Notes under the pieces: generated by a model | Told to the model about the DNA's origin: nothing | Database searches by the model: none | Seen by the model: only the letters and a program-made list of their open reading frames with translations | Assembly: GCA_046563655.1 (NCBI GenBank) | Contig: JAJCTO010000010.1 | Span: forward strand, 496,001 to 560,000 | Direction of reading: 5' to 3' | Length of the DNA: 64,000 nucleotides | DNA from: Yuukianura sp. NJ FZ-2021 | Lineage: Eukaryota | Shown: piece by piece, positions 31,171 through 53,411 of the stretch | Numbering within the stretch: the stretch's first letter is position 1 | Layout of the letters: every line of letters starts with the position of its first letter | Position numbers and translations under genes: made by a program

Positions 31171-32600
31171 TTTACTCCCACCTTTGCCTTTCAGTGCTAA
31201 CGAAAGGGAAAGTCACAAAATTAAAATTAAAACTACGTTATGGCTTAGCACCATCAACAAAGGTGAAAGTGCCTTATGTTACAAAGTAACCTAAACACTT
31301 AACCTAAAAAATGAAAATGAAAACTTAACCTCTAAACTGAAATTAAAACTGAAATCAAATCCTAAAATTAAAACGTATCTAAATGAAATGATCTCACTGT
31401 CCATAGCGAACTGGTTTCCGAATTGCACGTCCGCTTCTTGTTTTCTGTTCTGGTTCTGCAGTGGTGACCTCGTCTTCGTCCTGACACGGCAGACACTCGC
31501 AGTAAGTGTCGCTGTCACTTTCCACTGCAGATTCGTTGTCGATGAAGTTGGAGCTCTCGGCTGTCTTGACAATGTTGCTCTCGGCTGTCTTGACTGGTGG
31601 CTCCGGTATCTCGTCATGTCTCAATTCCAATGGCACTAGTCGTTGAATGGGACGCAGCAGCTCTCCATTCTTCGTCTTCAGTTTGGCTACCCGAATTTCT
31701 CCATCTTTCCCAGGAAGCAGCTCCAGAATCCTCCCCATTGGCCAGAAAATCCGCTTCTTATTGTCCACTTCGATGAGTACGATTTCTCCAATGCTGAAAG
31801 TCCTGGTCTTCTGCTCCTTTCCCCGTTGGACTAACTGACCCAAATACTCAGAACGAAAACGCTGCTTCACTTCCTGTAGTAACTGGTCCAGCCATCTCTT
31901 CTCTTGTCCAAGGGTCTTCGGTATGATCAGTTGAGCCTCCGGCACTTTGCAATTCGGTAGATTATGGATGAACATTGTCGGGGTCAATGGTACAAAGTCG
32001 TCTTGATCTTCTGTGACGTACGTCAATGGTATGTGTTCACCGCAGCTTCCACTTCGCACAAAGCAGTTTCCAATTGAACGTAAGTCAGCTTCTGGAATCC
32101 AAGCATCCTACGGAGAAGATCCTTGGTGCTCTTGATGAGCCTCTCCCACCATCCGCCCCACCACGGTGCAGAAGGTGGGTTGAAAATCCATTTAACTTTC
32201 TGTTTCAGGGTCTTCTGTTGAACAAGGTCCCAATCGATCTCTTTGAACAGATTCACTGCTCCGACGAAGTTCGTTCCGTTGTCGGAGTAGACGATCGATG
32301 GACGTTGCTTCCTCTTGCAGAGTTTGATAAATGAGAGAAGCAAGTCATCAGTTGACAATGATTCGGTCACCTCCAGATGAACACACCGAAACACTGCACA
32401 AGTAAACATGTATGCTTTCTTCCTGTTCTTCAGGGTTAAGGGGCCTGCTAGATCCACTCCAGTCACTTCAAAGGCACTGGCCTACCTTACCCGCGGTTCC
32501 GGTAGAGCACTAGCCACAACTTCAACTGTCTTACCATCAAACCTCTTACACACGATGCACTTTGTTATAACTTTCTTGGTGGCTCTTTTTCCCTGGATGA

Positions 32601-33675
32601 TGTTACACCTGGAAAAAGTGCATGAAGGTAGTTTTAAGATGAGATATTATTATTATTTGTATTAGTTCATTCATTTTGCTGTTTTCAAAATGTTGCAAAA
32701 ATTTAGTCAAATTGTAGAAAAACTTAAAGTGTCGTAAATTTGATAGAAAAGACTTTGGCGTTGGCATTAATGGGATCAATAAGGTTAAGCTCTAAGTTGC
32801 AGATGCATTAGAGTGCATGGGAAGACACCAGATTCAAGTCACCAGCAATTGAGATTGCTGTTGGCTTGAACATGGTTTTAGATTATAAAAATACAAAGTT
32901 GCGAATTTCCCAAAATTTTGCGAAAAAATACAATGTCAAGAATTGCAGGGTAGCAACCAAAAGTAACATCTATAAATATAGGGTGCAAGCATGCAGACAT
33001 TCGATCATTTCCTTCAGTTAGATTTTCAGTTTAAGTTTACTTCTTAGTTAAAGTTCTCTTTAAAAATTTTAAGTCATAATTTTCTTTTAAGACAAATAAA
33101 ATTTCGAAAATTCAAAAGTTCGATTCACTTCCGTCTCTCTCATCTACAACCAGCCAAGGAGCTAAGCTAAGCCAGGGAAAGATTCAGCGAGACTTGGACC
33201 CTTCGTCATCTGCATTCGACAGCCGAGGTAAATAACAAAGCAAACGATTCGATCATTGATTTGGGATTCAGAGGGACCGGGACTGGGAAGGGTGCAGGGC
33301 CTGTCGGCTCCTGGACGGGTTCACCCGTCAAAAGGTTAGGGCTCCCTCCACCGGAATTCCCTTCGTGCGCCTTGCGCCTCCGACACGGGCAGTTGCGACT
33401 GACCCAAGGAGGTGGGGCGTACAGTTAAGTGGGCCCTTGATCATAGGTGCTCCCTTTCAGCGTCCACTCCGCGCCACCGACGCGGGTAGTCTTTGACTGC
33501 CCAGGGTGGCGAAGTGGGTCTGCTGCCGGATCTACGGACCCCTTAAGGGTCAAACTTTCAATACCTACAAATACAATTGGCCTTTTTAGCGCCAGGTGAC
33601 CACGCTCCTTCGCTAAGTGGCCAATCGGGTAGGGCACTTATTCGAAGTGACCCCTTGACCTAATTGGCCCTTACA
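32601..33675 (+). repeat. 5' LTR of gypsy B (1075 bp)
   Basis: TATAAATA at 32971, initiator-like TCATTT/TCAGTT at 33005-33019, AATAAA at 33095, candidate splice donor GAG|GTAAAT at 33228. Confidence 0.9.
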
Positions 33676-34079
33676 AATGGTGCCCGATGCAGGGGTCGTA
33701 TGGTCAAAACGAAATTTTGGTCATGAAGCATTACGTAACTTGTCTTCAAAACATTTTGATTCAGTTTTAAGCGAACTTTCAAAATTCTGGATAATTAAAA
33801 TCGTCATAATTCAAAAAGTATTTTGCATAAGTGTTCCAAACGAGCAGGAGTAGTTAGGCAGGTTCTAGGCACCATTTTCCACTCATTACCAGCACATGCC
33901 CAAGGTCTGCGCGACGCATGCGCAGAACGAAAAAATTGACTTTCTTGCACTAAATTGTAGGGCCATGCATTAGAAACGCGTACTTTGTTTAGAGAAGCTG
34001 AAAATATTTTTAAAATTAATATAATAACTAAATAATTAAAATTTAACTCGTAAATTCAAATTAAATTTTGGATACGGGC

Positions 34080-34210
34080 AGTAATCCTCCGGTCATCCTC
34101 CAGTAATCCTCCTGTAATCCTCCGGTCATCCTCCTGTAATCCTCACTTCATCCTCATGTCAACCTCATGTCAACCTCATGTAAACCTCATGTAAACCTTC
34201 GTCATCCTCT
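34080..34210. repeat. 11-bp tandem repeats in gypsy B leader (ATCCTCCnGTn / AACCTCATGTn)
   Basis: Directly visible. Confidence 0.85.
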
Positions 34211-34622: not shown

Positions 34623-35168
34623 ATGAGTATTCTGTTTAGGACTTGTGACGGGACTCTCCCGCAATCAGATCAGAGACCCTTAATAATTGCACACGTCACT
34701 AATAATTACGGAGCCTGGGGTAAGGGATTCTGCAGTCAATTATCATGGCGATACCCGCTTGTAGAATTGCATTTTAGAGCTGAAGGCTGGAAGGCCAGCC
34801 TAGGAGATATACAGACTGTTCCAATTGGTGAAGGGCTTCAGGTTGTTAATTTGTTCGCTCAACGCGATCCTTGGCATCCTGTTCCTATTTCCTATTATTC
34901 GTTAGATAAGAGTCTTGAGAAGCTAGGCGAATTAGCTAAAAATACAAAGGCCATTGTTCAGATGCCCTTAATAGGCACTGGATGTGGGCGCGGGTGCTGG
35001 GTGGAAGTAGAAAAGCTCGTTTGGAAGCATTTATGTAATAATAGGATTGATGTTCTCGTATGCTTGGAACGCAAAGTCGATTCCAACAATCAAATTATCA
35101 CACACAATTGTTTGACTAATCATCGTCATAACCCAGAGGCTCACTCTGGAATTTATCATTATCAGTAA
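34623..35168 (+). CDS. Macrodomain protein, TARG1/Poa1p/DarG-type
   Basis: IIAHVTNNYGAWGKGF, VVNLFAQ, MPLIGTGCGRGCW motifs. Confidence 0.85.
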   Translation: MSILFRTCDGTLPQSDQRPLIIAHVTNNYGAWGKGFCSQLSWRYPLVELHFRAEGWKASLGDIQTVPIGEGLQVVNLFAQRDPWHPVPISYYSLDKSLEKLGELAKNTKAIVQMPLIGTGCGRGCWVEVEKLVWKHLCNNRIDVLVCLERKVDSNNQIITHNCLTNHRHNPEAHSGIYHYQ

Positions 35169-36690
35169 TTCTATTCTAAAAATTACCCTGAGACATGGGA
35201 ATTAACGATGTCGTTTTCGACGTCGTTGTCGTCTTTACTTTTGTTTCCGTCATAATAAGTTTCAATGACAACCCAAGTTGGTACGTCGATAATTGAACCC
35301 CATGATCATATTCTGTTTGAATTTTGAAATAGTGAGGTTGTCTAAAAATGAAGCGTTCCGTTTAAAAGTATGCGTACACGCAGGATGGAATGGCGTTCAG
35401 CTTTCTCTTTGTCTCTTTGGCACTTAGTGATTTGAAGTTTACTTGGAACTTTAGGTTAGGTAAGATAGTTAAGCATGGTTCATACGGGTTAAGTAGTCGG
35501 TCGACCCAGGTCAGAATAGGCTCAACTAAGGCTCAACACCCAGTTCTACCTCAGGTATTCCTTGTACATAACATAGCTTACAGATAGGTCATATTAGATT
35601 ATAAGGCGCCACTCATAGCTTTAGGAAATGATCCCATTCTTAGCGCGGACTGGCTAGAATGTAATATTAAGTGTAGCAAGGATTTGCGCAAAGGTGATGC
35701 CGTGTTTACGAAGGAGACTTAGATCCGAAAGGTTAGGTCAAGGTCGGGGTGATCTTAGGCAACTGTCTAGAATGACGGGGCTGGTATTTGGGCGTGATGC
35801 CTACCAGCTGCCCCTTCAACAAATAATCCGAATCGAAGTGGATACTGAAATAGGCCCTCAGGCGGAAACTTCGGAGTGAGGTAGGCTCATTTGTAAAATC
35901 AAGCTAGCACTAGGTCACGGTTAGGGTTTAGAGTAGCAATGGCTCTGCCGAATCTATTAATCTTAACGCATAATTAAGTCAATTTATGAAGGAATTTCAA
36001 TAGTAGGTATCTCTTTCAGCGGTGTGAGCTAGCTCAGGATCCAGCGAGGACTCACGATTTCGTAACGATGTTAAACGGGTCAGGAGAGGTAGCTCTTTCC
36101 GCAAGTATTTCATAAAAAGGGGTTTGTTACAGTTCATGAAGGCCGCTTTATTTAAATTTAGGTCGGAATCAATGCACCAGGATTAAGCTCCCTGTTTTGT
36201 GCTCTGACCGGGTCAATGACACTTGTCCTGAAGAAACAAATCCCGTGTCAATAATTAACAGTTTGTTTGCTTGTATCTATTATGCCATGAGTGGTGACAT
36301 GTTTCTCCAGAGGGCCATGAACTGGGGAGATACGAGCTAACTACTTTGAAATTACCTAGGGATTTTATTTGAAGCATTGCCGTGTGTGGGCTGCTTCTTG
36401 TAACTTATGAAAGTGGAAAAAGCATTGCCGTGTTTTAGGCTGAATCCCTTCAAGTTGCTAAGGACTTATGAAGTTTAAATTGGTCGTATTTATTATGAGA
36501 AGTTTCATTGTTCATCTGAGAAGTTATAACATTTTGCGCATCCCAGCAGTGGAATTGTGGCATTAATTGTTTTTGTTTGAAAGAATAACAGAACATTGAC
36601 CTCCCGGAAGTCCCTTGATAATTCCACTCACTGGCGTGATCTACTTCCTAGAAAAAGGAATACGAAACTCCCTCAACTCCCAGCTCAACC

Positions 36691-38031
36691 ATGCGTCTGT
36701 TCGTGCTACTACTATTTATTGTTTCGGGTTACTGTAGTTACCTTAAGTGGGAAGGTCCCACTACCATTCACTGTCACGATGATGAGCGTAGCAAGAATCC
36801 ACCACGTATCAAAAGATACATTCCTTCAAATACCCCTTGGATCAAACGGAACATTACTTGGTCCATTGCTAACGTCCCATTACATTTAAATCTTAGCATT
36901 GTTAAGCTTGAAGCTCGACTGGCAATTGCTAAGTGGCAAGCAGCATCCAACTTAAAGTTCGAAGAACTCGAGAAACCAGCGCAAGCGGACATTCGAATCA
37001 GTTTTGAAAAGTTAAGCCACAATGATTCCGCTCCATTTGATGGAAGAGGTGGAGTGTTGGCTCACGCTTTCTTTCCAAGTGAAAGTCTGCTTGGAGGCGA
37101 TATACACTTTGACCTTGCAGAAAATTGGATCGTTGGTAAAAATGGAAAGGGAGTTAGTTTCTTTTCTGTACTATTACACGAATTCGGACATGCTATTGGA
37201 CTACGTCATTCCGACGTCCGTGACGCGATTATGACAGCATTTTACCGCGAATATGATTATTCAATTCGGATCAGTGACGATGATAAACGAGCTCTACAAT
37301 TTCTCTATAAAAATGCACCTAAATACGCGCCAATTCGGAAAAGTAGTTGGACAAATGATGACAATTTGGAAAAGAGCTTATGCCAAACAAATTACCGAAC
37401 TATTGCCAAAATTTATAACGAAATTTACCTTTTCGCGGACAACTATCATTATCGAATCGAAAACGGAGAAGTTTTTCTCTCCCAGCGAATGTATAATCAC
37501 AAATATTTTCAATATTTCCCAGAACATTTAAAATCTGACTTTGTGTTTCAATACGATCGAATGACTTACATTTTTTCTGAAGGGAAATATTTTAAGTACA
37601 TTTTTGGCGCAACTTTGGATAGGGGCTACCCGCGTAGCATGTCAAAGCTCAATTTAGCAGCCAATGCAAGCATCATTGGAGCCATGGAAATTGAGCGACG
37701 ACTCTATTTGCAAACAGCGACCGGATGGCGGTGTTACTATCACCACCAGCGCGAGTTATTCGAATCTTGTTGGGACGCGAAGGTCACTCAGCAATTGGCA
37801 CAGTTCACGACCCCTGTCACACAAATTGGAAGAAATGCTATGAATTTTAGCTTACTTAATGGCAATGAAGTTCTAACTTTTTCCTTGGACTTTGTGAAGC
37901 TTTCTTCTGAACCATTGATGGAATTTCTAAAAATTCCTTGTGTCGAAAATATTGTGGCTGGAAGTGCCGAGGCACAGCCGCAATGGTGGATTCTTTGTGC
38001 AGCTCTATTATTTATCTTATACCTTTTGTGA
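36691..38031 (+). CDS. Matrix metalloproteinase (M10A), intronless, with hemopexin-like region and hydrophobic C-terminus
   Basis: Signal peptide, furin site RIKR, FDGRGGVLAHAFFP, GGDIHFD, HEFGHAIGLRHS, Met-turn AIMTAFY, GYPR. Confidence 0.95.
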   Translation: MRLFVLLLFIVSGYCSYLKWEGPTTIHCHDDERSKNPPRIKRYIPSNTPWIKRNITWSIANVPLHLNLSIVKLEARLAIAKWQAASNLKFEELEKPAQADIRISFEKLSHNDSAPFDGRGGVLAHAFFPSESLLGGDIHFDLAENWIVGKNGKGVSFFSVLLHEFGHAIGLRHSDVRDAIMTAFYREYDYSIRISDDDKRALQFLYKNAPKYAPIRKSSWTNDDNLEKSLCQTNYRTIAKIYNEIYLFADNYHYRIENGEVFLSQRMYNHKYFQYFPEHLKSDFVFQYDRMTYIFSEGKYFKYIFGATLDRGYPRSMSKLNLAANASIIGAMEIERRLYLQTATGWRCYYHHQRELFESCWDAKVTQQLAQFTTPVTQIGRNAMNFSLLNGNEVLTFSLDFVKLSSEPLMEFLKIPCVENIVAGSAEAQPQWWILCAALLFILYLL

Positions 38032-38213
38032 GATACGTTAATTCTCCATTAAAAATGTCATAGTTGAGCACTATTGACTGGTTTTACCACATCATCGAAA
38101 ATGAAATGAATTTCGTGAATTGATGGGATTGAATGAACTTCGATTGTTCCAATTCCAAAAAGTTTTCAACCCTTTTTAACTTTTAATAGATTGCCTTGAG
38201 GCTGTAATAGCTC

Positions 38214-39787
38214 ATGAGCAAAGAAAAATCCAGTCGTCGTCTACAAAACAAACCGCCAGAATTTGGTCCAGAAGATTTAGAAGTTTTAGAAAGAGAGATC
38301 AGAATAGAAAGAAGCAAATCAAGATCACCCAGTACTGTTGAGATAGAAGTTAGCACTGAACAGACAGCAGAAGGCATTGTAGGGAAAATAGTTGTAGGAA
38401 GATCGGAGTCTGTAGGAACTCCTGATAGATTAGCGGTCGGATCTGTTGCTTCTGGGCTTAGCATCGCTTCCTGTGACGAGGAATTAGCGGAAATTAACGT
38501 TCCAATTCCACGAATTGAAGTTATTTCAAGTGAATCAGCCATGGCAGCTACTTCAACCCCTGTGGTTAGCGCGATTTCAATTTGGACACCTCCGGGTGAA
38601 CTGACCTTTAAAGGTCAACGGGGTGCCAAGGCAAATGAATTTTTGGACAAATTTAAAGCAATTGCTGTCTCCCAACATTGGGATGACGCAACTAAAATTG
38701 AGCATTTTGGCCTTTACTTAATTGGGCCTGCGAAGATGTGGCTATCAACATTTAAAAATGAATGGAAACGTAATCCTTTGAACAAAAACGCTCAAGGAGA
38801 CGTTAAGACTTGGAAACAAATTTTCGTGACGAGTTTAAATCTCGTTTGACTAAAGACGCGTTAGAGGACAAATTAGCATCTCGCAAGAAGGACAAAAATG
38901 AAACTGTTGAAGACTATTACTATAACGTGATGAAGCTCTGTGACCAGCTTGAGGCTAGTCAAGGGTCTTCGATTAAAGAAGATGAGCGGATTTTGTATTT
39001 GTTGAAAGGATTGACCCCGGAGTTAGCTTGGGTCATCCACCAGAAAAGTCCATCGACTACTAAGGAGGTTCTGAGTGAATTGATTCGGAAAGAAAACTTC
39101 GATTATAGCTTCAAACGTAAAACAACGTTAATGCAAAATAGAGAATTAGAAGAGGCTGTTCAGACTATTTTTCCACTGGCAATTAGCGACGAATCAGGTA
39201 ATGACAAGCAGTCAATGACGGTTCAAACTTCTCAGATGGGTTATCAGCGGAGTTCTACCATTCCTGGTTCTCGAGGACGAGTACCTGGAACTCAACATTC
39301 TCGGGGAAGCGGTCAAGGATCTGGAATTCTCCGTGGCCAAGGAAGCCGTCCAACGGCAGTCTACACTCGCTCTTATCAACCTCGTCACACTGCTCATGCG
39401 GTTGGATTTGAGCCAATTCCGCAACAAGTTGCTCATTGTTACAGCTGTGGGTCAAGCTCTCACCCCACCAGGCAATGCCCGGAAGAGAAGATTTTGCGTA
39501 CTCCGGCACGGCTTAGATGCAGCATCTGCGAGTCTACCATGCACATCGGTAGAACCTGCCCTCATCGCGAACAAGTCGCAGCTCGCCGTGCGTGTTACCA
39601 GTGTGGCTCCGAGAATCACATGAAGCCTCAATGTCCGCAGCTTCAACGGAAATCTCCAGGTCCTCGGCAGATGAATTGTCAAATCTGCAAATCAAACGCT
39701 CATCCTACTCAGGAGTGCCCGCACAAACCCAAACCGGAAGCTCAGTTGGAAAAGAAAGTTGTGGTAAAAGAGGAGCGACGCCAGTAG
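38214..39787 (+). CDS. gag: Gag of gypsy B (one frameshift near 38820), four CCHC knuckles
   Basis: WDDATKIEHFGLYLIGPAKMW; ETVEDYY...LLKGL; four CX2CX4HX4C motifs. Confidence 0.9.
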
Positions 39788-39789
39788 GA

Positions 39790-42700
39790 GGGACTGACGT
39801 CGATTTGAATCTTAATTCCTCCGTAGTACATAGTTGTCATGCAGTAGAGCCATCAGATTCTTTTCCTGAATTAAATTTTGGTAACGTGGTTACCACAATC
39901 TATTTCGTTGATGGCGATAAACGACGTCGTATTACTGGATTAATTGATACAGGAAGTCCAGTTAGTATAATTATGGCTCAGCACGTTCAAGCTCACGAGT
40001 TGGTTCCTCAACTTCCTGGTCTTAAACTATTATCCGCCAATCAGGCTAAAATTCCAATCTTAGGTTCTGTCAAAAAGTCATTAGTTTTCTGAAAATCTTC
40101 TGATCAAGTTTTGTCTCATTCCTTTTTAGTTATTGAGAAATGTCTCTTTGATATAATTTTGGGAAACGATTTCAATTCCAAAAATCTTCTCACCCTTAGT
40201 TTCAATTCCGCTCCAAAGGGATACGGAAGTTATTCATACGTCGGCATGAGAGTTCCACGACCTTTCAAACTATTTTCAAACGATAGCTTAGGACTACCTC
40301 TTCATCTACATCACCTTCAGCGGCAAGGTTCTAATAAATTGAACCATCATACCCCAAGGTCATTACCATTTCTGAGGAAATTTTGCCTCCATTTTCTACA
40401 ACCAAAGTTCTAGTGAAGCCAGTCACTCCTATCACAGGAACCTTGTCATTCGAACCAAATCAGCATCTTTTAGATCGACTTGGGCTCTGCATTCCATATT
40501 TAGCTCATATTGAAGAAGGCTGTTTTGAACTACCAATCGACAACCCAAGGCCGGTTCCAACTACTGTTTATGCTGGTGTTCACGTAGGAAATTTGACGCG
40601 TGTTCAAATCCGCGAGGTTGAAGCAGAGGACAATATTCGCCAAGCTAGGTTTAAATCCACGAAGGAAAATATTGATCAGATTATCATTAATCCTGATTTG
40701 TCCATGGCAGAACAGCAACAACTAAAAGATTTGATTCTTAAATACGGGGATACCATGGCATGGGACCTTGATCAGTTAGGGAAGGTGCAGGATGAATATT
40801 TCAAAATTGATACGGCGGATGCAGCACCCATTTCCAGTGCCCCTTACAAAAAGGCGCCTCATGAAAAACGCATCATTGAGGAGGAAGTGGATAAATTACT
40901 TAACGCAGGGATAATTCGAGAAAGTACTAGCACTTGGAGTGCAGGTGTCAGCTTAGTTAGACGTCCAGGTAGTGACAAAGTTCGAATGCTGATTGACTAT
41001 CGTCGCTTGAACAATGTAACTAAAAGCCAGTCTTATCCAATGCCCGTCATCAACGAGATTCTTTCTTCTTTCACCGGATGTAAAGTTTTCTCTTCCTTAG
41101 ATTTAGCCTCTGGCTACTTCCAACTTAAAGTCCATCCGGATGACGTGGAAAAGACAGCTTTTATAGTACACAATGGAACGTATGAATATCAATACGTCAG
41201 TTTCGGAATGAAACATGCTCCTGCCTTTTGCAATTCGGTCATTACGAAGGTGTTAGGTCGGCGTCTTTACAAATTTGCTCAGGCTTATTTAGATGATCTT
41301 TGCATTCACTCCAAGGACTTCAAAACTCATTTAGAACATCTGGAAGACGTTTTTCAACAATTTCAAAGATTTAACCTCACTTTCAATCCCGCAAAGTGTC
41401 ATTTTGGAAAAAGTAAATTAGAGTTGTTAGGTCACGTCATCTCTGACAAAGGCATTTCAGTTTCTGATTCCAAAGTGAAAGCGATATCTCTCATGCCTCC
41501 GCCTAGGAATGTTGGCGAAGTCAGGACATTTCTCGGTTTATGCGGATTTTACCGTCGATTCATTTTAAATTATAGTCAAGTAGCTAAATCACTCACCGAC
41601 CTCACAAAGAAAGAGAAGCCATTTCAGTGGAGTTCAGATTGTCAGGAAGCTTTTGAAACACTTAAAAGTAAACTTATGACAGCTCCTATTTTAGCCTACT
41701 TTAATGAAAATTTTGAATTAGAGCTTCATACGGATGCTTCCAACAAATGTATCTCGGCAATTTTAAATCAAAGGAACTTAGACGGAAAATTAGAAGTCGT
41801 TGCGTATGCTAGTCGAACTTTGAAGGGTGCGGAAGAGCGTTACAGTACAACGGACAAAGAAGCTCTCAGTGTTGTCTGGGGACTAGAGAAATGTCGTGAG
41901 TACATTGGATTTCGGCCATTGATCATCGCGGTCGATCATCATAGTCTTTGTTATTTAAAAACATGCAGGAATTTCAGAAATAGTCGGTTAGCTCGATGGG
42001 CCTTACGTTTGCAGGACGTAGACTACGAGATTCGTCATGTGAATGGGAAAACTCACTATCAGGCCGATTGTCTATCCCGCTTTCCGATCGACGATGAACA
42101 AGAATTCAAAGATGACTTTCCGATTCCTTGGTTTCTTACTACGGTTGTCACTCCTACCGATTCAACCGACGATCTTCAGCGCAATCAATTGGCTGACTCC
42201 AAATTGAAATTTATTATCGAAAAACTTAAATCACATTCTCACCATAAATTCTCTAAAAAGTTTATTCTTGACGATGATTTGCTCAAGTGGAAATGTATCA
42301 AAACCGGGAAACTTTTACCCGTAATTCCTCATCTTTCAATTCCTGAGATACTGCCACGCTTCCATGACGACATTCATTCTGGTCACATGGGAGTAGAGCG
42401 GACTCTGGAGCGCGTTCTTCGCAGTGTCTTCTTTTTCAAAATGCCTAAGATCGTTGAGAATTATGTCCGTTGTTGCAAAACGTGCCAGCTTCGGCGCAGT
42501 AGAAATACGAAACCTTTGGGGAAATTGTGTCCTATTTCCGTAGGTCAAATGTTCGACCGAATGAGTTTAGATGTAATTGGACCGCTGCCATCGTCCAAAC
42601 GTGGTAACAAATTCATTGTCGTTGCTGTAGAATTTCTTTCTAAATTTGTTTTCGCTCGAGCTATCAAAAAGCAAACTACTAAAGTAATGTTAGATTTCTT

Positions 42701-43721
42701 GACTGACATTTTTCAGACTCATGGACTACCAAAAACTCTTCTCAGCGACAATGCTTCAATTTTTACGTCTGACTTTTTCAAACAGTTTCACAAATCCCTT
42801 GGGATTATTAACGTCTTTTCCAGTCCGTACCATAGTCAAACTAACGGGCTCTGTATCTCTCCGAACAGAAGTATTGAAGAAGTTTTAACGAATTACACTT
42901 CCGTGTCTCAGCGAGATTGGGACAAGTATTTAGGGTCTGCCGTTTTCAGCCTAAATACAGCGGAACACAAAGAAAGCACTGGTTTTTCCAGTTTTTACAT
43001 CATGTTCGGTCGCCACCCGAACCATCCGTTGGATCTTGTCTGGGATACTGTACAATCCAACGACGACATTCCCACTCGCATACGCAAAATGCAGGAAGCT
43101 AGAGATTTAGCCAAACTTGGCATTGAAAGAGCGCAGGCTCGTCAGGCCAAGTCCTACGATGCCAAGCGTCTCCTTGATGAATTTGAAATTGGTGATTTGG
43201 TTTTGGTCAAGGTGACCAAGGTGGAACCTGGCAGGTCACGGAAATTGTGTTTCCGTTACCGCGGTCCTTATGTTATTGTTCAAAAGAACTCTGCTCTGTC
43301 TTACAAATGCAAGCCTCATAAGCAACAAGATGACTCAGATCCGATTCGCGTTCATATTTCTAATTTAAAGAAATTTGTAGACAGTGAAGGTATGACCCAC
43401 CTTTGTCACAAGCCGTGTTTGTCTGACCCGGGACGGGCAGATTCTAAACCGGGAAAGCTTCCTATGGAAGTGGTAAAGATAACGGAAACCCCAGAAGCAG
43501 ATCCTTCGGATAAGTTGATTCCGGATGATCTGTTAGAATTTGAGTTTGAAGAACCTACAGTAGATAAAGTGAGCTTAGGCTCTGAATCTGAAAGTGAAAG
43601 TAGTGAAAATGCATCATCAACTGAAGACGAGGAGATTGAAAAAGATAAACTTGAAAATGTTGTTAGAACTAGGGCTGGAAGAGAAGTCAAGAAACCTGTT
43701 AGGTTTGGAATAGACTCATAG
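39790..43721 (+). CDS. pol: Pol of gypsy B: protease (frameshifted near 40090 and 40380), RT, RNase H, integrase
   Basis: LIDTGS and IILGNDF protease; LDLASGYFQ and YLDD RT; TDAS and ADCLSR RNase H; HSGH..CKTC, DDE and GPY integrase. Confidence 0.95.
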
Positions 43722-43763
43722 TTATTCTAAAAGGGAAATCGAATGGAATAGAAATTAATTCAG

Positions 43764-46007
43764 GTTAAGCTCGAGGTCGTACTGATTGTAGCGGCTTTTG
43801 CGAGTATTACCACTTCCCAGAAAAACTCAATTTATCCGACTCAAGTTCGAGTCACCTCTGGAGCCTTCGTTCGAGAAATCACGGACGCGGAGCTTTACAC
43901 GGCAACTGTTCCTCTCATCTACGATTTAAATGTAACCTTTGCGGAAATCCCACAAAATTTATTTCGTTCCAAAATTTGTGAAACAAGCGCGGATGGATGC
44001 AGTTTTCAGATCACAATTCGCGATATGGTTAATCATGTTAGCCAGACTTTAAGAAACATTTTGAAAGACATCCTTCATGATCCATCCTCCGGAACAGCAC
44101 GAGAGTTCCTGGCCAGAGGACAGCGTTCTCTTGATTTAGAAAGTCTCAATCCTCTCAATCTTGTTTCCGATTTTTATTCATTCTGTTGCGGCTTTGTCAG
44201 CAAAAGAGACATGAAGTGCCTCTTTTCAAATGAAGTTGAAGTTAAAAAGTTCTTGGAAACCTTGAAAGGTTCAGTGGTGGCCAATAACCAAAACGTCATG
44301 ACCATCAAAGAAAGTTACGAACTGTTTCGTGGCAACGTTTCCCGAATTGTTAACCGAATCCATAGCAGCTTAGAATCACTAAGCCAAGAAATGAATGAAA
44401 CCATCACTGAAGAAACCGAAATCGCTAGACAGGTGAACGCATTGTCACGAGAAGTCAGCACGTTCCAGAGAGGTTTCATGCAAACATATTTTCATCTGAA
44501 TTCAATTGCCGAAATTATGCAGTTCACTGATCTTCAATCCCATTGTCGCAGTCATACAATTCCCTTGCTCGCCGTTAATCCCCAACGACTCACCAAAGAC
44601 TTACGAAACATCAACCGAAAAATTAGAAATGATGGTTACACCTTGGCCATTTCAGCAGAAGACGTTTCCAAATACTATAAATTACGAATAGCGGACTGCA
44701 CCTTCACTCCGGAAGGAAGAGTAATTTTTCGGGTTAAAATTCCTATTCGACGAATTGAAGAAAATTGGAAGCTATTCGAGATGGTCAACATTCCATTTGG
44801 CTTCAAAGGAAGTATTTGTATGATTCAGCATGCACCCACTTACGTAGCTGTTGCCGCTAACAACATCATCACCATCCAGGGAACTCAGCTGCACCAATGT
44901 CAGCCTCATTCCGGACTCTGTCTTGTACCTCAAACGAACAGCAATCCAATGGTCGGTTTCCTTTGCGTCAAACATCTGCTAAAAGGTTCAAGCGTTCGAG
45001 AACTAAATGATGTATGCATTTTTGAGTGTGTGTTGGGTAACAACGAATTAACGGTCACCCAATTAAGCTATGATACTTTTATTCTAACTGGAAAAGTTGA
45101 AGGCACCAAAATAGATTGTGGTGAAAGCAAAAGCTTTTCCGTGGGTCCGCCGACGGAAGGCGTGGGAAGCCTTCAGGTGAAATTAAGCTGTGATTGCTCA
45201 GTAAAAATTCCAGGAAGATCCCCAATTCGACCTCCATATCCTTGCCCGGACGACCTCGTAAACTATCCCACAGTCCATATTATAATTCCTACCGTCATGT
45301 CAAAAATTGATGTTATGCTAAAAGCCAACAATCGAGGTGAACCAGTTACTTTTCCCCACCTCCATGCAGTTTTCAATGAAACTTGGGACCTAGGTTCACC
45401 CCGCCTAAATTTAACAGAAGTCAGCAGAATTAAACAATTGGTAGTACCAAATTTAATTCACGTCATTGCTCCCACTACAGATACCATGCTGATAGTGTGG
45501 AACATAGCTTTGAGCGTCATTCTGGGATTCATGATGTACAAACAATGCTGTACCAACGGAATCGGCCCAGTCATAGGACTCGGATTGATGGACCGAATTA
45601 GAGGAGTCGCAGCACAAAGCTCGGAAGCCCATCACACCACAAACATTGTCATAATTGGAATTTTGTTTTTCCTACTGCTACTTGTTCTTCTCGTATGGTA
45701 TATTTACCTTTATCGAATCTGCTCAGAGCAAAGAAAGAACGAGTTCAACGTTCCCCCAGAGAAAAAGAGAGAAGGAGCCGATGTAAAGCCTGCCACCGAG
45801 ATTAAGGACGGAGCCTCCAAAGTTAAAATTCCCAAAGCATCTGCAGAAGTTAATTTGGAAGTGGGAATTGGAGAATCAAAGAAATTTTTAGTCCCAGAAG
45901 GAATGCCTTTACGACTCACAATGAGTCATGCTGAAACTCGCGTCCTTAAAAGCTTCCAGCCCAAACTTGATCCAACGTCAGAAACGACGGTTGAAACTTA
46001 TGTCTAA
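43764..46007 (+). CDS. env: Envelope fusion glycoprotein (baculovirus-F/errantivirus Env-like), probably spliced
   Basis: Frame is open 87 codons upstream of the 44025 ATG, starting after TTCAG with hydrophobic VVLIVAAFASITTS; furin-like RGQR; heptad region; Cys-rich ectodomain; YY..IFRVKIPI..LFEMVNIPF; N-glycosylation sequons; C-terminal transmembrane helices. Confidence 0.85.
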   Translation, partial: VKLEVVLIVAAFASITTSQKNSIYPTQVRVTSGAFVREITDAELYTATVPLIYDLNVTFAEIPQNLFRSKICETSADGCSFQITIRDMVNHVSQTLRNILKDILHDPSSGTAREFLARGQRSLDLESLNPLNLVSDFYSFCCGFVSKRDMKCLFSNEVEVKKFLETLKGSVVANNQNVMTIKESYELFRGNVSRIVNRIHSSLESLSQEMNETITEETEIARQVNALSREVSTFQRGFMQTYFHLNSIAEIMQFTDLQSHCRSHTIPLLAVNPQRLTKDLRNINRKIRNDGYTLAISAEDVSKYYKLRIADCTFTPEGRVIFRVKIPIRRIEENWKLFEMVNIPFGFKGSICMIQHAPTYVAVAANNIITIQGTQLHQCQPHSGLCLVPQTNSNPMVGFLCVKHLLKGSSVRELNDVCIFECVLGNNELTVTQLSYDTFILTGKVEGTKIDCGESKSFSVGPPTEGVGSLQVKLSCDCSVKIPGRSPIRPPYPCPDDLVNYPTVHIIIPTVMSKIDVMLKANNRGEPVTFPHLHAVFNETWDLGSPRLNLTEVSRIKQLVVPNLIHVIAPTTDTMLIVWNIALSVILGFMMYKQCCTNGIGPVIGLGLMDRIRGVAAQSSEAHHTTNIVIIGILFFLLLLVLLVWYIYLYRICSEQRKNEFNVPPEKKREGADVKPATEIKDGASKVKIPKASAEVNLEVGIGESKKFLVPEGMPLRLTMSHAETRVLKSFQPKLDPTSETTVETYV

Positions 46008-47478: not shown

Positions 47479-48177
47479 ATGACCTCGGCCCCGCTGAAGC
47501 CTGGAACCCTTCACTTTTATGAGTTGCCAGAGCTAGTTTTGGACAAAGTCTTCCAGTTCTGTTGCGTCAACGATTTAACAAACGTAGTCGACGTGTTCCC
47601 CAAATTGTTAAAATACATAGAGGAAACGAAAAGACGGGCTCGAGCCAAACAAAATCAAATATTCAGTAATATTGTAATACTCCAGCGATCGTATTACCCA
47701 GGAATACTTACAGTTGACCCCAACAGTCATACAAAAATAGAACAATTCTTGGCAAAAATACCACTTAACGTTTTTCCAATTCTCTTAAGTCAATTTATTT
47801 TGGATTACAATCAACCACTCCAGCTTCACTGGCCGGCCATTGTAACTTTCGCTCCAGCAGAGTTGGAACGGATCTTGCGCAAATTCGGGATTGAATATTA
47901 TAACTTTCACGACTATTGTACACTTGTTCCTCTTGGGCCTCGCCCAAAACCATACCGTTTTCAAACATTAGCAAAACAAATTCGAAAGTATACAAAAGAT
48001 AGAGAAGACTTAGCGACTCATTTAGAAAGAATTTACGCGCGAGAACTTCCTATCTACTTATCGGCTTTTACTACCGCTCAACGTAAAGCCCGGCGGCGCG
48101 CTCGGCAATACTACACGCGTCGAGGGTTAGGAGTTACTGACGAGTGGCTCGATATCGCTCTGTGGGAATTTCTCTAA
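47479..48177 (+). CDS. F-box-like protein
   Basis: N-terminal FYELPELVLDKVFQFCCVNDLTNVVDVFPKL fits the LPxE..I..L...DL..V F-box pattern. Confidence 0.65.
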   Translation: MTSAPLKPGTLHFYELPELVLDKVFQFCCVNDLTNVVDVFPKLLKYIEETKRRARAKQNQIFSNIVILQRSYYPGILTVDPNSHTKIEQFLAKIPLNVFPILLSQFILDYNQPLQLHWPAIVTFAPAELERILRKFGIEYYNFHDYCTLVPLGPRPKPYRFQTLAKQIRKYTKDREDLATHLERIYARELPIYLSAFTTAQRKARRRARQYYTRRGLGVTDEWLDIALWEFL

Positions 48178-48191
48178 TTTTCTCCTGCATA

Positions 48192-49070
48192 ATGCTGCGA
48201 TTCAAACGGTGTGCCAGCATCGCATTGCCACTCCGACCAAGTTCTGGAATTCTTCCAGGATTTGTGTTTTTATGTCCAGCTGATACTGTTTTAGCGGCCA
48301 AGGGAACAGCAGTAATTCGAACCTTTATTGAAGTTGACCTCCCGGAAGGAACTTACGGTCGTATAGTTCCATCCAGCGAACTCGGAAATTTAATTAACGT
48401 AAGAATGGACTTAATTGAACGGGACCAGCGCGGACCAATCGAAATTATCCTTTATTCTCATGATTATACTAACCGAATTATTAAGCGCGGTCAACAAGTC
48501 GCTGAAATCATTTGTGAAAGATTCGATAAGTATGAGTTACAAGAAGTCGCACGGCTTCCGCGAAGAGAGGAAAATGTTATGCGCGCGACTTTTGCCGAGA
48601 CGGCCTGGATGAGGAAAGTCCGCTTCAACCTTCTCGTTATCCCGACGATATGCCGCACTCGGCGAACCTTCGATTTACGGCCAATAATTTTGGGCAACAG
48701 CGGCAATGAGGTTTTCCCGGAAAGAAAATTATTTCCAGTCTTGGAATTTATTGAAGAATCGGGAGATCAGACCCAGAGCCAGATCGGAATTTGGAGCGAT
48801 TTCTTTTTACAATTAGCTACAAGAGATATAGAAAACATTTGCCTTCATTACCAAATTTATCCTCCAAGCTACTATTTTAAATATAAAGAAATCATTTGCA
48901 TAGATTTGCTTCAATGTGATGCGAAATCCTCTTTCCGGCTTTTATTGAAAACGTTCGAGGGTTATCGTCGATATGGTAGATCAATTCGAGAGGAATTGAT
49001 GTACCACATCAGACTTAAATCCCGGGGAGACTACGAACTCCGACCCAGAAGTAATCGGTTCCTACATTAA
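48192..49070 (+). CDS. Degenerate dUTPase-fold protein with C-terminal extension
   Basis: LPEGTYGRIVPSSEL, LIERDQRGPIEIIL, IKRGQQVAEIICER align to dUTPase motifs 2-4 with catalytic substitutions; motif 5 absent. Confidence 0.8.
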   Translation: MLRFKRCASIALPLRPSSGILPGFVFLCPADTVLAAKGTAVIRTFIEVDLPEGTYGRIVPSSELGNLINVRMDLIERDQRGPIEIILYSHDYTNRIIKRGQQVAEIICERFDKYELQEVARLPRREENVMRATFAETAWMRKVRFNLLVIPTICRTRRTFDLRPIILGNSGNEVFPERKLFPVLEFIEESGDQTQSQIGIWSDFFLQLATRDIENICLHYQIYPPSYYFKYKEIICIDLLQCDAKSSFRLLLKTFEGYRRYGRSIREELMYHIRLKSRGDYELRPRSNRFLH

Positions 49071-49236
49071 GGGGATCCTAACTTGTCAAAGGAAAATTAA
49101 CTGTAGTCCCTGTTACACACGTAGTAAATAGTAGAGAAAAACTGTAGTTTATTTATAGTAACAAACATTATAAGGGAACGTAGTTCTAAATAAAAATTTG
49201 TAAAATGTAAATCCGAAATAATCAAATTGATTTCAG

Positions 49237-50463
49237 ATGTCTTCAATTTACACTTCTGCTAAGGATCGATGGGCTGAGAGATTGCGAATTAACCGTCGCA
49301 GAACCATTGTTTTGAATCACCAAATTCGGTCTCAGATTCGGGCAGTCCAGGGTGCCTCCTTAATTTGCTCCATACATCCCTCTGCTCTTCCCAAAACTAT
49401 TCATCATCCCCACTCCTACTTTCATAGACATGAGCAGGTTCAAAAGTTTATTTCACGAATAGCCAGGCAAGAACCTATCGCAGTCACGTGCTTCCAAAAC
49501 GAAGAGACTTACTTAGGGGAGACTACAGCAATCGGCCTCTGCTCATTAGGAATGTCATGTGTCATTGAAACAAAGGAGCTTTATCTTCAAATCAAACCGT
49601 TCTTAGAACCAATTTTCCTGGACGCCACTACGCCAAAAATTTTTGCCTCCTACAGTGAGATTCTTTGGCTCATTCGAGATTTCGGCCTTTACACAGTAGC
49701 TGCCATTGACATCACTCAACTCAAGCTCACGCCAGCTTGGACACATGATATCAGTTTCAACCTTTTATGCGAACAATTCCTTGGAGAATCGCATCAAAAA
49801 CCGAAATTTCATGATCCCACTCTCCTCAAGCTATATACAGCCATGAAAGCACACACAGACACTCTGTTTCGCCTCTGGAAACGTATGAGGATTGGATTGA
49901 CAAAACGAGCTGATTTTGCAGATGTCATCAGAATCATGGTAAAAGCCTCGGGACAAGCTGCAAGTAAGCAGCTTAAATCACCTGGATTAGTAAAAGGCTC
50001 TCGACCGCTAATAGTTCCAGCAGACGTTCCTTCCCGCCGTTTGGACAAACTCATCAGCAATGTTATTATACGACTCGGCGTTATTCTTGACCAACCTCTC
50101 TCCAGTTTTCGCACTCGATATTGGGAATGGGCGACCGTTCAACAAAGTCACGCTCAGGCACGTGTGAATCGATTTCTCCAGTCATTCAAGCTACCTACGG
50201 ATCACCCATTGACTAAAACGGAAGTCATAGCCGAAATCAACAACCTCTTTATGGACGACATCGGTGCAGTAGCTTCATCCACTGGACACTCTCCACAACC
50301 AATCGCTTCACCCGAAGATAGCCCTCCTCCTGCGAAAACACCGCGATTGTCGGCTCCTCCTCCACCAGCAATTGCCGGTACCTCACGCAGCAGCATTCCC
50401 ATACCATCACTGGATCGTTCCTTTCGGCCTCCTGCAGTGCCTAACTGTAACAGTGTAACCTAA
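49237..50463 (+). CDS. Rrp6/EXOSC10-like DEDDy exonuclease-domain protein, predicted inactive
   Basis: TYLGETTAIGL, VIETKEL, FLDATTPKIF..SEILWLIRDFGLYTVAAID resemble Rrp6 SFLGLTCLMQI, IIDTLEL, LTDPAIVKVFH..SDIEWLQKDFGLYVVNMFD; ExoI VDLE reads VTCF. Confidence 0.75.
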   Translation: MSSIYTSAKDRWAERLRINRRRTIVLNHQIRSQIRAVQGASLICSIHPSALPKTIHHPHSYFHRHEQVQKFISRIARQEPIAVTCFQNEETYLGETTAIGLCSLGMSCVIETKELYLQIKPFLEPIFLDATTPKIFASYSEILWLIRDFGLYTVAAIDITQLKLTPAWTHDISFNLLCEQFLGESHQKPKFHDPTLLKLYTAMKAHTDTLFRLWKRMRIGLTKRADFADVIRIMVKASGQAASKQLKSPGLVKGSRPLIVPADVPSRRLDKLISNVIIRLGVILDQPLSSFRTRYWEWATVQQSHAQARVNRFLQSFKLPTDHPLTKTEVIAEINNLFMDDIGAVASSTGHSPQPIASPEDSPPPAKTPRLSAPPPPAIAGTSRSSIPIPSLDRSFRPPAVPNCNSVT

Positions 50464-50465
50464 CT

Positions 50466-51104
50466 GTGGTCACATTAACCAAACCACAACAGACAGCAAC
50501 CATTGTGCGACCATTCGAGGAAGAGTCTACTACCCCGCTCACTGCAAGTCACATTTCCGTTGACCCAGCACCTACTCCGACAATTGCAAGCAGCGAGCCT
50601 CAAGGATGTATCGATGAGCCGTATGTTCCTCGTTCATCTATTGAAACGGAACTTAGAGCTGAATTGGACAAATACAAAATCAAATATCTTGCCATGTCCG
50701 CCAAAGCCCGCACCCTAGAAATTGGGCTCGACCTATACAAATCCTCTCCCCGATCCTCTGAACGATCCTCTCTACGATCCTCTGCCTTAGCCGTTCCTAC
50801 TGCCATTCAAGTGAAGCTGCCTCCCCTCTGGACGCCTCCTGGTCCCAACAAGACGCCGGTTATGGCAGTCACGGCAATGTGTGCCCAAAACCAAGTTGGT
50901 CACACTCCAACTCCAGGGCCAGTTGCAGGGCCATTTTCCAGGCCAGCTCCAGGGCCAGTTGCTGGACCTTCTTCACGCCCAGCTCCAGTGCCAGCACTAC
51001 CTCCGGCAGCCAACTCGGTTGTTATCATAGACTCCGACGACGACGACACCATCTATCGCGCTTCGGACTCTGAAACCGATTACAGCTCCGACGAGGACGT
51101 CTGA
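50466..51104 (+). CDS. Pro-rich/coiled-coil ORF with acidic SIM-like tail, possibly the frameshifted continuation of 49237-50463
   Basis: No ATG start; ELRAELDKYKIKY coil; ends VVIIDSDDDD...SSDEDV just before the purine tract. Confidence 0.5.
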   Translation: MVTLTKPQQTATIVRPFEEESTTPLTASHISVDPAPTPTIASSEPQGCIDEPYVPRSSIETELRAELDKYKIKYLAMSAKARTLEIGLDLYKSSPRSSERSSLRSSALAVPTAIQVKLPPLWTPPGPNKTPVMAVTAMCAQNQVGHTPTPGPVAGPFSRPAPGPVAGPSSRPAPVPALPPAANSVVIIDSDDDDTIYRASDSETDYSSDEDV

Positions 51105-51121
51105 AATTAAACCGGGAAAGA

Positions 51122-51366
51122 TGTTACACCTGGAAAAAGTGCATGAAGGTAGTTTTACTCCGCGCCACCGACGCGGGTAGTCTTTGACTACCCAGGGTGG
51201 CGAAGTGGGTCTGCTGCCGGATCTACGGACCCCTTAAGGGTCAAACTTTCAATACCTACAAATACAATTGGCCTTTTTAGCGCCAAGTGACCACGCTCCT
51301 TCGTTAAGTGGTCAATCGGGTAGGGCACTTATTCGAAGTGACCCCTTGACGTAATTGGCCCTTACA
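51122..51366 (+). repeat. 3' LTR of gypsy B, internally deleted (245 bp)
   Basis: First 36 nt match 32601-32636; the remaining 209 nt match 33467-33675. Confidence 0.92.
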
Positions 51367-53411
51367 ATGATCCAGTACTTTTCACGTAACTTGGCCATCA
51401 TCAGCTGTGCTCCTCCGTGTGCGTTGAAGATGTGAGTGTCCCGGATGATGAGATTGACAATGGGATGAGAATGTGGAAGTAAAATTGGTTTCCTAAAAGT
51501 GTCTGTGTCGATCCGATTAGTCACTTTGGTTTTCACTTTTAGTAGTCCATCTGAGTCCACTTGCACTCTCAAACCCTGAATGACACTTTTGTCCATGGGA
51601 AATGATTCCTCCTGAATGATCTTGATCAATCTTCGTTCTGCCTCCTCCAGTTCTGTGATTGTAGGAATCTCGGACTTCTCTGTAGACTCCTTCTTCAAAA
51701 GACTCACAAACCGGATGACATAAGCAAAAACACGAAGAGTCTGATGAAATGAATACATGGTGACGAGACAGGCGCAGGAGTAGTAATGTTCGTGAGTGTC
51801 GTGATACTCTTCTTACGCTCCTGATTGACTGCATCTTCGTCCACCGATGATTCTGATCTGGGCCACATCTCCTTTTCCAATTTCGGCCAATCAGGTCCCT
51901 CCCACCATCGCGACAGCACGAACCTGGTCGGAGAAGTCCCCCTGGATGGCAGATCTGCCGGATTTTCCAAACCCGGAATGTGGTTCAGATGATGGAAGAC
52001 GACTGCACGGATATCTGCTTTGACACCAATCTTCCCCATCCGGAAACGAAGTAAAATTGAAGGAAGAAGTTCAAGCAGATTCGGTCCTTTCTCTAAGCAC
52101 TCATTAAGTGACGGATTCCTCCCGATCTTGCACGAAGCGTCGAACACTGGACGCACGGTAGTAGTTAAACTGGCCTTGAAGACGGCGCGATGAAGAACAT
52201 AATGACACGGAACACTCTCACTGTCACCCAAGTCCTCGACCACTGAAATTATGCCCTCGGATTCCCATTCCCGAAACACTTTGTCATATTCTGAGAACCG
52301 ATTCAGAGACACTAACTTCCTGGTGGTGTTTTCCAACCGTTTCTGAGCCACTGCACGATTTGTAGGAAGGGATTGAGAGCCATTGATCCAAGGTAGAGAG
52401 ACAGTGTATCATCCTTCCGGATCTGTAGTAACTGTCTTCTGAAAATTTTCAATAGCCTCTCTCTCCCGGTCTTCCTGCGTCTTCTTTTCTACGGGATCAC
52501 GAATTCCAAGGACATCCAAAGACCAAAGCTGGGCGACTGTCGAGCTAGCGATAGTTAGACCCATAGAGGGGCTAAAAGAAGAGGGGCGTTACCCCTCCCC
52601 ACGTCGCCATTGTCGTTAGAACGGCAGATGCCATGATAGTCGCCATTGCAAACGATGTTGCTCGGCGACTGGCAGTGACGACTGCCCCTCCATCCCTTCA
52701 CCATCCCACCGATGGACACGTCACAAGTCAAGGTCGTTCTAGCCTTGTCTAGAATGGGGAAAGTGGTTGATTTCATTTTAGTCTTCTGGAGACGCACGTC
52801 TACGACGTGCTGAAGAAGACTATTGATACGACTTTGTCTGTCCGTCTGTCCGTCCGTCTGTCACGTTTTTTAGAATCCTTTCTACTGAAACATTAGCCCC
52901 ATCGCAGTCGGGGGTTATCTATAGCTCAAGTTTTTTCATTACCTCTACATTGCACTCAAACTCGTACAATAACAACGTAGAAGCAGGCGGCTACTTTACG
53001 TACCCGCAGTATCGTGGCTCCGCAAAACTGTTTTAGTTTCGATTGCACTCAAAATATTTATAAACAACGGAGTTTTGATCTGGTCATTTTCTGGCAGTAT
53101 GTTTAATTACGTTGTTAAATTAACACCGATCAGAGGGTAGAAAATCCGGCTCAAATGTTTAGCATGTGAATAGTGCATAACAGGGGTCAAAGTTGCAGTT
53201 ACTAGAAATTTTTATAATTTTAATTTTCACAAGCGATATACGACCCCTCGAGCCAGCGTTCATTTTTTGTTTCACTAGAAATAAATTTGCATTCACTAGA
53301 AATTTTTATAATTTCGATTTTAAACAATCGATATTGGACCCTATAAATGCGCTTAATTTTGTGCATGATGCAAACTTATTGCACATGATTGTAAAATTGT
53401 GCAGTTATTTT

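Follow-up and report, generated by a model that had tools for sequence, protein, structure and literature searches.

Retroelements that bear an env gene are thought to persist by infecting the germline from neighbouring cells. Among cellular matrix metalloproteinases (MMPs), MMP-17, MMP-25 and Drosophila Mmp2 are anchored by glycosylphosphatidylinositol (GPI). Chary and Hayashi (eLife 2026, PMC13524379) reported env-carrying Ty3/gypsy elements of the gag-pol-env type ('errantiviruses') across most metazoan phyla. The metalloproteinase of betabaculoviruses has been proposed to degrade basement membrane and to aid systemic spread (PMC4500397). Rodriguez, Kenefick and Arkhipova (2017, PMC5408684) described bdelloid rotifer long terminal repeat (LTR) retrotransposons that carry open reading frames (ORFs) for a dUTPase, a DEDDy exonuclease and a GDSL esterase, downstream of or within pol, and a review of giant transposons, which covers the planarian Burro elements, noted that captured ORFs are found occasionally in LTR elements, on the downstream side of pol (PMC6431247). 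Here we describe an MMP gene that lies upstream of gag in an env-bearing LTR retroelement of Yuukianura sp. NJ FZ-2021. The DNA analysed, called the window below, comprises 64,000 nucleotides (contig JAJCTO010000010.1 of assembly GCA_046563655.1, positions 496,001 to 560,000, forward strand), and all coordinates are positions in the window.

The MMP gene is a 446-codon ORF at 36691..38031 on the plus strand, initiated by ATG and with zero internal stops in the ORF table of the 64-kb window; the two alternative frames across the same interval contain 14 and 40 stops. Its product matched Pfam Peptidase_M10 (matrixin, PF00413; MEROPS M10A) at residues 50-206 with an E-value of 2.3e-46 (158 bits against a cut-off of 24), and the match spanned profile positions 2-158 of 159. 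The closest PDB sequences were the catalytic domains of MMP-11 (E 2.8e-33), MMP-12, MMP-20, MMP-2, MMP-13 and MMP-14; the catalytic domains of MMP-14 and MMP-16 matched at about 1e-29. An AlphaFold2 model was built on a 36-row alignment, the rows of which were hand-picked from 120 listed matches. The mean predicted local distance difference test score (pLDDT) of the model was 71, with about 90 in the catalytic domain, 74-90 for residues 230-350 and mostly less than 60 beyond. In a Foldseek search with this model, full-length MMP-13, MMP-1 and MMP-12 ranked first (E 3e-22 to 9e-19), and catalytic-domain chains gave template-modelling (TM) scores of 0.83-0.94 with root-mean-square deviations of 1.4-2.5. 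The catalytic domain, supported by Pfam, PDB, AlphaFold2 and Foldseek, occupies residues 43-210 (36817..37320) and contains the active site HEFGHAIGLRH at 37177-37209 and the Met-turn methionine, Met181, at 37231-37233. All 13 invariant columns of the 36-row alignment are conserved in the element MMP, and H163, E164, H167, G170, H173 and M181 are invariant in that alignment; the same holds in a 12-row alignment for H110, D112, H125 and H139, the ligands of the structural zinc. Judged from its sequence and model, the ORF is a real matrixin, predicted to be complete and fold-competent and to carry secretory features.

The initial annotation of this stretch, in addition to the complete zinc motif and Met-turn described above, had proposed a signal peptide, a very short prodomain with a reduced cysteine switch, a furin site RIKR and an eroded hemopexin region, and each of these was recovered by the present analysis. 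Residues 1-18 are hydrophobic, and a putative signal peptide, read from hydropathy rather than with a dedicated predictor, was assigned to residues 1-16 (36691..36738), where the model has a helix at residues 2-15. It is followed by a 26-residue propeptide remnant (36739..36816) with the candidate switch cysteine C28 in the motif IHCHDD and the furin-type RIKR at residues 39-42. In a 13-row and a 12-row alignment, C28 sits in the nearly invariant cysteine column of PRCG, and R39 and R42 are invariant. No PG_binding_1 helical bundle (PF01471) was found in the Pfam scan of the protein. The latency propeptide of MMPs consists of a three-helix bundle and a PRCGxPD switch; here there are 26 residues only, and the motif is IHCHDD. 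To our knowledge, a propeptide with both bundle and switch is typical of MMPs yet not universal. One database protein (P0368), which is 24% identical to the element MMP, is a 430-residue MMP that starts with a signal peptide, has a minimal propeptide (IGRCGTDD) lacking the helical bundle, and ends in a hydrophobic tail; because it shows the same layout, the layout of the element MMP is not unique to the element.

Beyond the catalytic domain, hemopexin-like blades were recognized at residues 229-341 (37375..37713), starting at C231. The Pfam hemopexin match was weak (residues 285-320, 24.9 bits against 21.3), and a hemopexin profile made from 31 homologues matched residues 229-341 with an E-value of 3e-15. 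In blastp searches, the C-terminal half matched a sea-urchin MMP (3e-7) and a copepod MMP (1e-4). In none of the three frames did the profile match past residue 341. A hidden frameshift behind the eroded hemopexin region was rejected, since no frame matches after that residue. Residues 342-430 (37714..37980) form a divergent region with no profile match and low pLDDT. The protein ends with AGSAEAQPQ and then 15 hydrophobic residues; the hydrophobic tail, residues 431-446 (37981..38028), is a candidate GPI signal or membrane anchor, and the model places a low-confidence helix at residues 431-445. The proposal of a GPI- or transmembrane-like tail stood as regards hydrophobicity, whereas from the sequence a GPI anchor is only plausible. 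C231 is invariant in the 12-row alignment, in which C436 occupies the column of the last hemopexin cysteine. Because C436 aligns with this hemopexin-closing cysteine, the tail may in part be the former last hemopexin strand.

The MMP gene lies inside one LTR retroelement at 32601-51366 (18,766 bases). The gene order is macrodomain, MMP, gag, protease (PR), reverse transcriptase-RNase H-integrase (RT-RNase H-IN), F-type env, ORF232, dUTPase-like, DEDDy-exonuclease-like and ORF217, and all eleven ORFs of the element are on the plus strand. The MMP gene ends 183 bases upstream of the gag ATG (38214), is 3 kb downstream of the 5' LTR, and has no introns; flanking host exons were not found around it. 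By blastn, the direct repeat consists of 32599-32636 against 51120-51157 (100%) and 33466-33676 against 51157-51367 (97.6%). Both LTRs have TG...CA ends, and 5 of the 249 aligned bases differ between them. With an LTR pair, a target-site duplication, a primer-binding-site-like stretch and a purine tract, gag with CCHC knuckles, PR, RT-RNase H-IN and an F-type env, the element is an env-carrying member of Ty3/gypsy (Metaviridae). A nested second element inside the LTR pair was considered and rejected; the internal repeats consist of one 52-base low-complexity pair only. The nearest known pol proteins were 35-39% identical, mostly from arachnid Ty3/gypsy elements, some of them named after transposon 297, and a scan of viral contigs with the element pol found no relative. 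The position assigned to the MMP in the initial annotation, upstream of gag in an env-bearing element, was correct: the gene lies between the LTRs, and the env is of the Baculo_F type. The errantivirus setting that was also suggested held in so far as the element is an env-bearing Ty3/gypsy. The element is no plain errantivirus, since it is 18.8 kb long, carries at least five further non-canonical ORFs and has a pol only 35-39% identical to the nearest one.

A word-indexed search with the MMP gave best matches of 42-46% identity over at most one third of the query, or about 30% where two thirds were aligned, and these were MMPs of sea urchin, octocoral, copepod, springtail and fish. When 1.84 billion representatives were searched exhaustively with HMMER, 7866 relatives emerged, of which 109 reached E ≤1e-30; the best 150 of the 7866 shared at most 47% identity with the element MMP. 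The gene is, within that range, not near-identical to a known MMP. In the search for longer proteins, all three matches (3/3) were multi-domain MMPs of fish, and RT, integrase or gag domains were found in none of the 12 representatives scanned (the 11 longest and P0245, from the best 150). A metagenome scan with the MMP returned one locus with a 12-residue match only. Catalytic domains from large DNA viruses in IMG/VR were 30-40% identical to that of the element MMP (19 of 80 loci examined). One viral contig of 7.8 kb with an MMP (L002) was considered as a possible retroelement and rejected; it is a piece of an AT-rich DNA virus.

Phylogeny against viral MMPs, which the initial annotation had called for, was examined with a catalytic-domain tree of 58 rows and 167 columns (quick search with the Shimodaira-Hasegawa-like approximate likelihood ratio test, SH-aLRT). 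Nineteen rows came from the 80 viral loci, with L063 dropped (its protein start equals that of L004), and 40 database rows were hand-picked from named and top-scoring matches, with P0024 dropped because of a split catalytic domain. The element MMP, on a long branch (0.82), fell together with 15 viral rows into a polytomy that is unstarred (SH-aLRT 81), and no starred clade holds it. This viral grouping is probably a result of long-branch attraction. None of the viral MMP C-termini matched the element MMP better than E 0.29. That the element MMP is a captured cellular MMP is well supported by sequence comparison, because its C-terminal half matches animal hemopexin and not the viral C-termini; the tree contributed a weak polytomy, and the architecture is of the animal hemopexin type. 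The retro-capture proposed earlier agrees with an intronless gene of cellular catalytic and hemopexin architecture within LTRs. Synonymous codon use of the MMP correlated with that of pol, env and gag together at r 0.71 (env 0.71, dUTPase-like ORF 0.70), a weak sign of long residence in the element, or merely of origin in the same genome.

Other copies were sought in three DNA runs of one sample and study (X1, X2 and X3), with contigs aligned at 80% likeness. On the element there were 242 contigs in X1 and 362 in X2 (49/59/53/81 and 102/126/60/74, respectively, by identity class). Together they covered all 30 of the 30 element bins, MMP included; X3 was without cover over most of the element. 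Word depth in the three MMP bins was 121-165 in X1 and 122-197 in X2, against 121-274 and 95-385 in the internal bins, and was several-fold above the interior in the LTR bins; these depths are not copy numbers and were taken only as a sign that the MMP segment accompanies the remainder of the element throughout. An X1 contig of 1119 bases over 36903-38022, inside the MMP ORF, showed 21 differences in 1120 bases. A contig joint at 38056/38159 shows another copy in which the end of the MMP gene is connected with the leader of gag, and a 6240-base contig runs from pol through env to the dUTPase-like ORF. Furthermore, in an X2 contig 32598 runs directly into 51370, and this contig thus represents the surrounding minus-strand retroelement with the site empty. 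Other copies consequently carry the MMP gene too, as it is covered, with the above differences, by contigs from two runs, and the element is a multi-copy, 18.8-kb, env-bearing Ty3/gypsy element of errantivirus-like type.

The copy in the window is a defective provirus. The gag frame shifts halfway through the capsid-like domain, near 38.82 kb, a stop at 40090-40092 separates the DTGS and ILGNDF motifs of the protease, and env is also damaged. At the observed lesion rate, a 1.34-kb ORF would be open by chance about 6 times in 10, and because of this the open MMP frame in this copy is no evidence of selection. The open frame here reflects the gene of the family, not proven selection at this locus.

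In the explanation that we favour, to which we give about an even chance, the ORF is a real matrixin gene of a multi-copy env-bearing retroelement, captured and remodelled into a surface protease that eases particle spread. A cellular, furin-activated, hemopexin-bearing animal MMP would have been taken up as an intronless copy. The helical propeptide bundle would then have been lost, with the signal peptide, switch cysteine and furin site kept and the catalytic domain fully conserved, and the last hemopexin part would have been replaced by divergent sequence ending in a hydrophobic tail. In a cell expressing the element, the MMP is predicted to enter the secretory pathway, where a furin-type convertase would cut it at RIKR. 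With so little propeptide, and no bundle to hold the switch cysteine on the zinc, it may be active early and with little latency. A hydrophobic or GPI-type end could hold it at the cell surface or on budding membranes, and cleavage of basal lamina or cell-surface proteins might then ease the exit or entry of enveloped particles between tissues, a role like that proposed for the betabaculovirus metalloproteinase.

Several observations weigh against this explanation. The core genes carry three lesions (gag, PR and env) within about 7.8 kb. Decay could be the reason why hemopexin similarity has been lost from residues 342-430. The 1119-base X1 contig is one base shorter than the window inside the MMP ORF; because one base is missing and the other frames are full of stops, the MMP of an abundant X1 variant may be broken, provided that the contig is correct. 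The gene may also be a fairly recent capture from an unsampled host MMP gene. Two ORFs and a leader of 4.5 kb before gag pose a translation problem, and a consensus splice donor was not found in the leader (33.7-38.3 kb). A motif scan found no RxK/RR site in env, so that shared furin processing of MMP and Env is not indicated. Finally, no RNA run was among the runs listed with element sequence.

These points bear most directly on the possibility that the gene is a passive passenger, that is, a host MMP cDNA transduced into the leader by template switching and since then copied along, functionless and decaying. We regard this as possible but doubtful. An unrecognizable stretch of 100 residues at the C-terminus, a one-base length difference inside the ORF between this copy and the abundant variant, and an otherwise defective window copy are what such a passenger would show, and as the host proteome is outside the databases searched, the capture may be of any age. 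However, all catalytic and metal-binding residues have been kept at a divergence of at least 53% from known MMPs (best 150 relatives), and the N-terminus looks edited rather than randomly worn, with the signal peptide, switch cysteine and furin site in register and the bundle between them removed. The MMP equals gag, pol and env in word depth and resembles the core genes in codon use. A useless 1.3-kb insert before gag should, moreover, be costly and hence lost.

The gene could instead encode a functional protease of the element with another target: host surface or immune molecules, such as receptors and recognition proteins, which it would shed or destroy, or proteins of the element, which it would process. 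What speaks for a competent protease, secreted or tethered, counts equally for this alternative, the substrate-docking hemopexin domain is remodelled, and the remaining cargo (macrodomain, possible F-box protein, dUTPase) resembles a kit for interference with the host. Nothing points to any substrate, however, the only viral precedent cited points to basal lamina and, as a weak argument, Env has no recognizable convertase or MMP-type motif needing a dedicated protease; we consider this alternative improbable. That the MMP does not belong to the element at all, being a host gene, a separate insertion between the LTRs or an assembly chimera, is very unlikely, for although none of the longest contigs listed spans from LTR through MMP into gag, the element has a single LTR pair flanked by a target duplication, its empty site occurs in a contig, a second internal repeat pair was not found, the MMP is on the same strand as the other ORFs and lacks introns and flanking host exons, word depth is even, and a contig joint ties its 3' end to the gag leader.

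The remaining features of the element are on the plus strand, apart from the target-site duplication ATGA (5' copy at 32597..32600, 3' copy at 51367..51370, both read from the sequence). The 5' LTR (32601..33675) contains an 829-base segment, 32637-33465, that is missing from the 245-base 3' LTR (51122..51366); both were delimited by blastn and from the sequence. The word depth of the 829-base segment was about 10 times that of the element interior, and an X3 contig is unbroken over 32601-32957. Because this contig is continuous across the left junction, the long 5' LTR form, which bears the 829 bases, may be the native, original LTR; either a high-copy repeat has been inserted or the 3' LTR has undergone a deletion. 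A primer-binding-site-like stretch starting with TGG lies two bases past the LTR (33678..33695, read from the sequence). The tRNA and Rfam scans of the window gave no matches (0 tRNA genes, 0 Rfam matches). A purine-rich tract, resembling a polypurine tract (51108..51121, read from the sequence), abuts the 3' LTR.

The first ORF of the element (34623..35168, 181 residues), which lies 1.5 kb upstream of the MMP, encodes a macrodomain by phmmer against PDB (5e3b, E 1.8e-13; 2afc and 2fg1, E 1.5e-12) and had no Pfam match. A 6537-base X3 contig (record 17), a diverged relative with about 83-86% identity, aligned to window positions 34642-34861, 35375-35776 and 32601-32957, and in it the macrodomain region lies about 850 bases upstream of an LTR start, unlike the order in this element. 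This hints that the macrodomain module occurs elsewhere in position or in another element family. The gag (38214..39787) has a capsid-like region and CCHC knuckles (Ty3_capsid E 0.0021, zf-CCHC E 6e-4). The protease (39553..40413), identified by translation, carries its in-frame stop inside the fold. The pol (40338..43721) comprises RT (RVT_1, 8.5e-26), RNase H (RT_RNaseH_2, 4.9e-32), integrase (Integrase_H2C2, 3.1e-15; rve, 2.1e-10) and an SH3-like region. The env (43743..46007) is of the baculovirus-F type (Baculo_F E 2.8e-8, 33.3 bits against a cut-off of 24.1), with a stop at the third codon (43749-43751) and, by hydropathy, a transmembrane-like segment near the C-terminus. Between env and ORF232, a 60-codon ORF at 46149-46331 (plus strand) would encode an arginine-rich, coiled-coil-looking peptide, which could be a small RNA-binding accessory protein or a chance frame.

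ORF232 (47479..48177) had no Pfam, NCBIfam or PDB match. Its atlas feature matches (0.86-0.91) include several to F-box clusters, and its N-terminus, LPELVLDKVF..., is F-box-like; both are weak and were taken as a lead only. The dUTPase-like ORF (48141..49070) matched Pfam dUTPase (E 1.7e-13) and, below the cut-off, TIGR00576 (3.1e-11). The ORF at 49231..50463 resembles a DEDDy-type 3'-5' exonuclease: it matched DNA_pol_A_exo1 below the cut-off (E 0.0012), and all 13 of its 13 PDB matches were Rrp6/EXOSC10, with a best E-value of 4e-4. ORF217 (50451..51104), from the ORF table, is rich in Pro and Ser with an acidic end and matched no Pfam or NCBIfam family.

Taken together with the MMP, this gene set permits a broader interpretation that we put forward tentatively and hold to be rather unlikely. 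The element might represent a complex, possibly infectious lineage of invertebrate Ty3/gypsy retroviruses that has acquired cargo like that of large DNA viruses, with ORFs on either side of gag-pol-env. A constitutively activatable surface MMP would open a way through basal laminae, from soma to germline or from host to host, the macrodomain would counter antiviral ADP-ribosylation, the dUTPase and DEDDy exonuclease would serve replication in non-dividing cells, and ORF232 would perhaps act as an F-box adaptor.

Outside the element, the window contains further repeats. The element is inserted in another retroelement on the minus strand, and integrase-like ORFs with a weak Integrase_H2C2 match lie on both sides of it, at 31397-32481 and 51312-52408 (both minus strand). 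A 1718-codon open frame at 5510-10663 (plus strand) is probably the polyprotein of another mobile element. At 56952-60481, an inverted duplication (56952-58633 against 60481-58813, 96%) surrounds tandem arrays with a period of about 42 bases (58185-58712 and 58813-59249).

Among known systems, the betabaculovirus metalloproteinase (mp-nase/XcGV MMP) and its homologues in large insect DNA viruses likewise are virus-borne proteins with a matrixin catalytic domain, which is 30-40% identical to that of the element MMP. They differ in being genes of DNA genomes of 100-230 kb, whereas the element is a retroelement, and in their C-termini, which are unlike that of the element MMP (E >0.29), with its animal-type hemopexin. 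Given the weak polytomy and this different architecture, we do not group the element MMP with the viral MMPs. Furin-activated and membrane-type MMPs (MMP-11 and the MT-MMPs) share with it the RxKR right before the mature N-terminus, the catalytic and hemopexin domains and the hydrophobic C-terminus. Unlike these, the element MMP has no PF01471 domain, a degenerate switch (IHCHDD), one to two last blades that cannot be recognized, no introns and a place in a mobile element.

With the errantiviruses of PMC13524379, the element shares LTRs, gag, PR-RT-RNase H-IN, an F-type env, multiple copies and a 4-bp target duplication. It differs from them in its length of 18.8 kb and in at least six extra ORFs, two of them before gag; the main text of that article contains none of the terms metalloprote*, dUTPase, accessory or exonuclease. 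The bdelloid and Burro elements resemble it in carrying enzymatic cargo beside gag, pol and env, and dUTPase-like and DEDDy-like ORFs also occur in the present element. Their cargo lies downstream of or inside pol, whereas here two cargo genes precede gag. The term 'macro' has no occurrence in the covered text of PMC5408684 (macrodomains in retroelements generally were not a subject of search), and 'metalloprote' has none in that of PMC6431247. A retroelement-borne MMP was not found in literature searches or in term searches of the covered text of PMC13524379, PMC6431247 and PMC5408684.

LTR retroelements with captured cargo are known, and what is new here is the kind of cargo, an MMP, its place before gag and the size of the accessory set. 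Loss of the bundle, retention of the furin site and addition of a tail are what would be expected of an enzyme that is active without host activation cascades. If the favoured explanation of a captured, remodelled surface protease is correct, the gene would represent a recruitment of an MMP by a virus-like agent independent of that in betabaculoviruses, and a matrixin in an env-bearing element is a concrete and testable candidate for how particles cross tissue barriers. The cargo ahead of gag raises a mechanistic question about gag translation. With its macrodomain, dUTPase-like, exonuclease-like and other ORFs besides the MMP, the locus shows that the accessory genes of Ty3/gypsy elements can be similar in complexity to those of complex retroviruses, with part of the cargo placed before gag.

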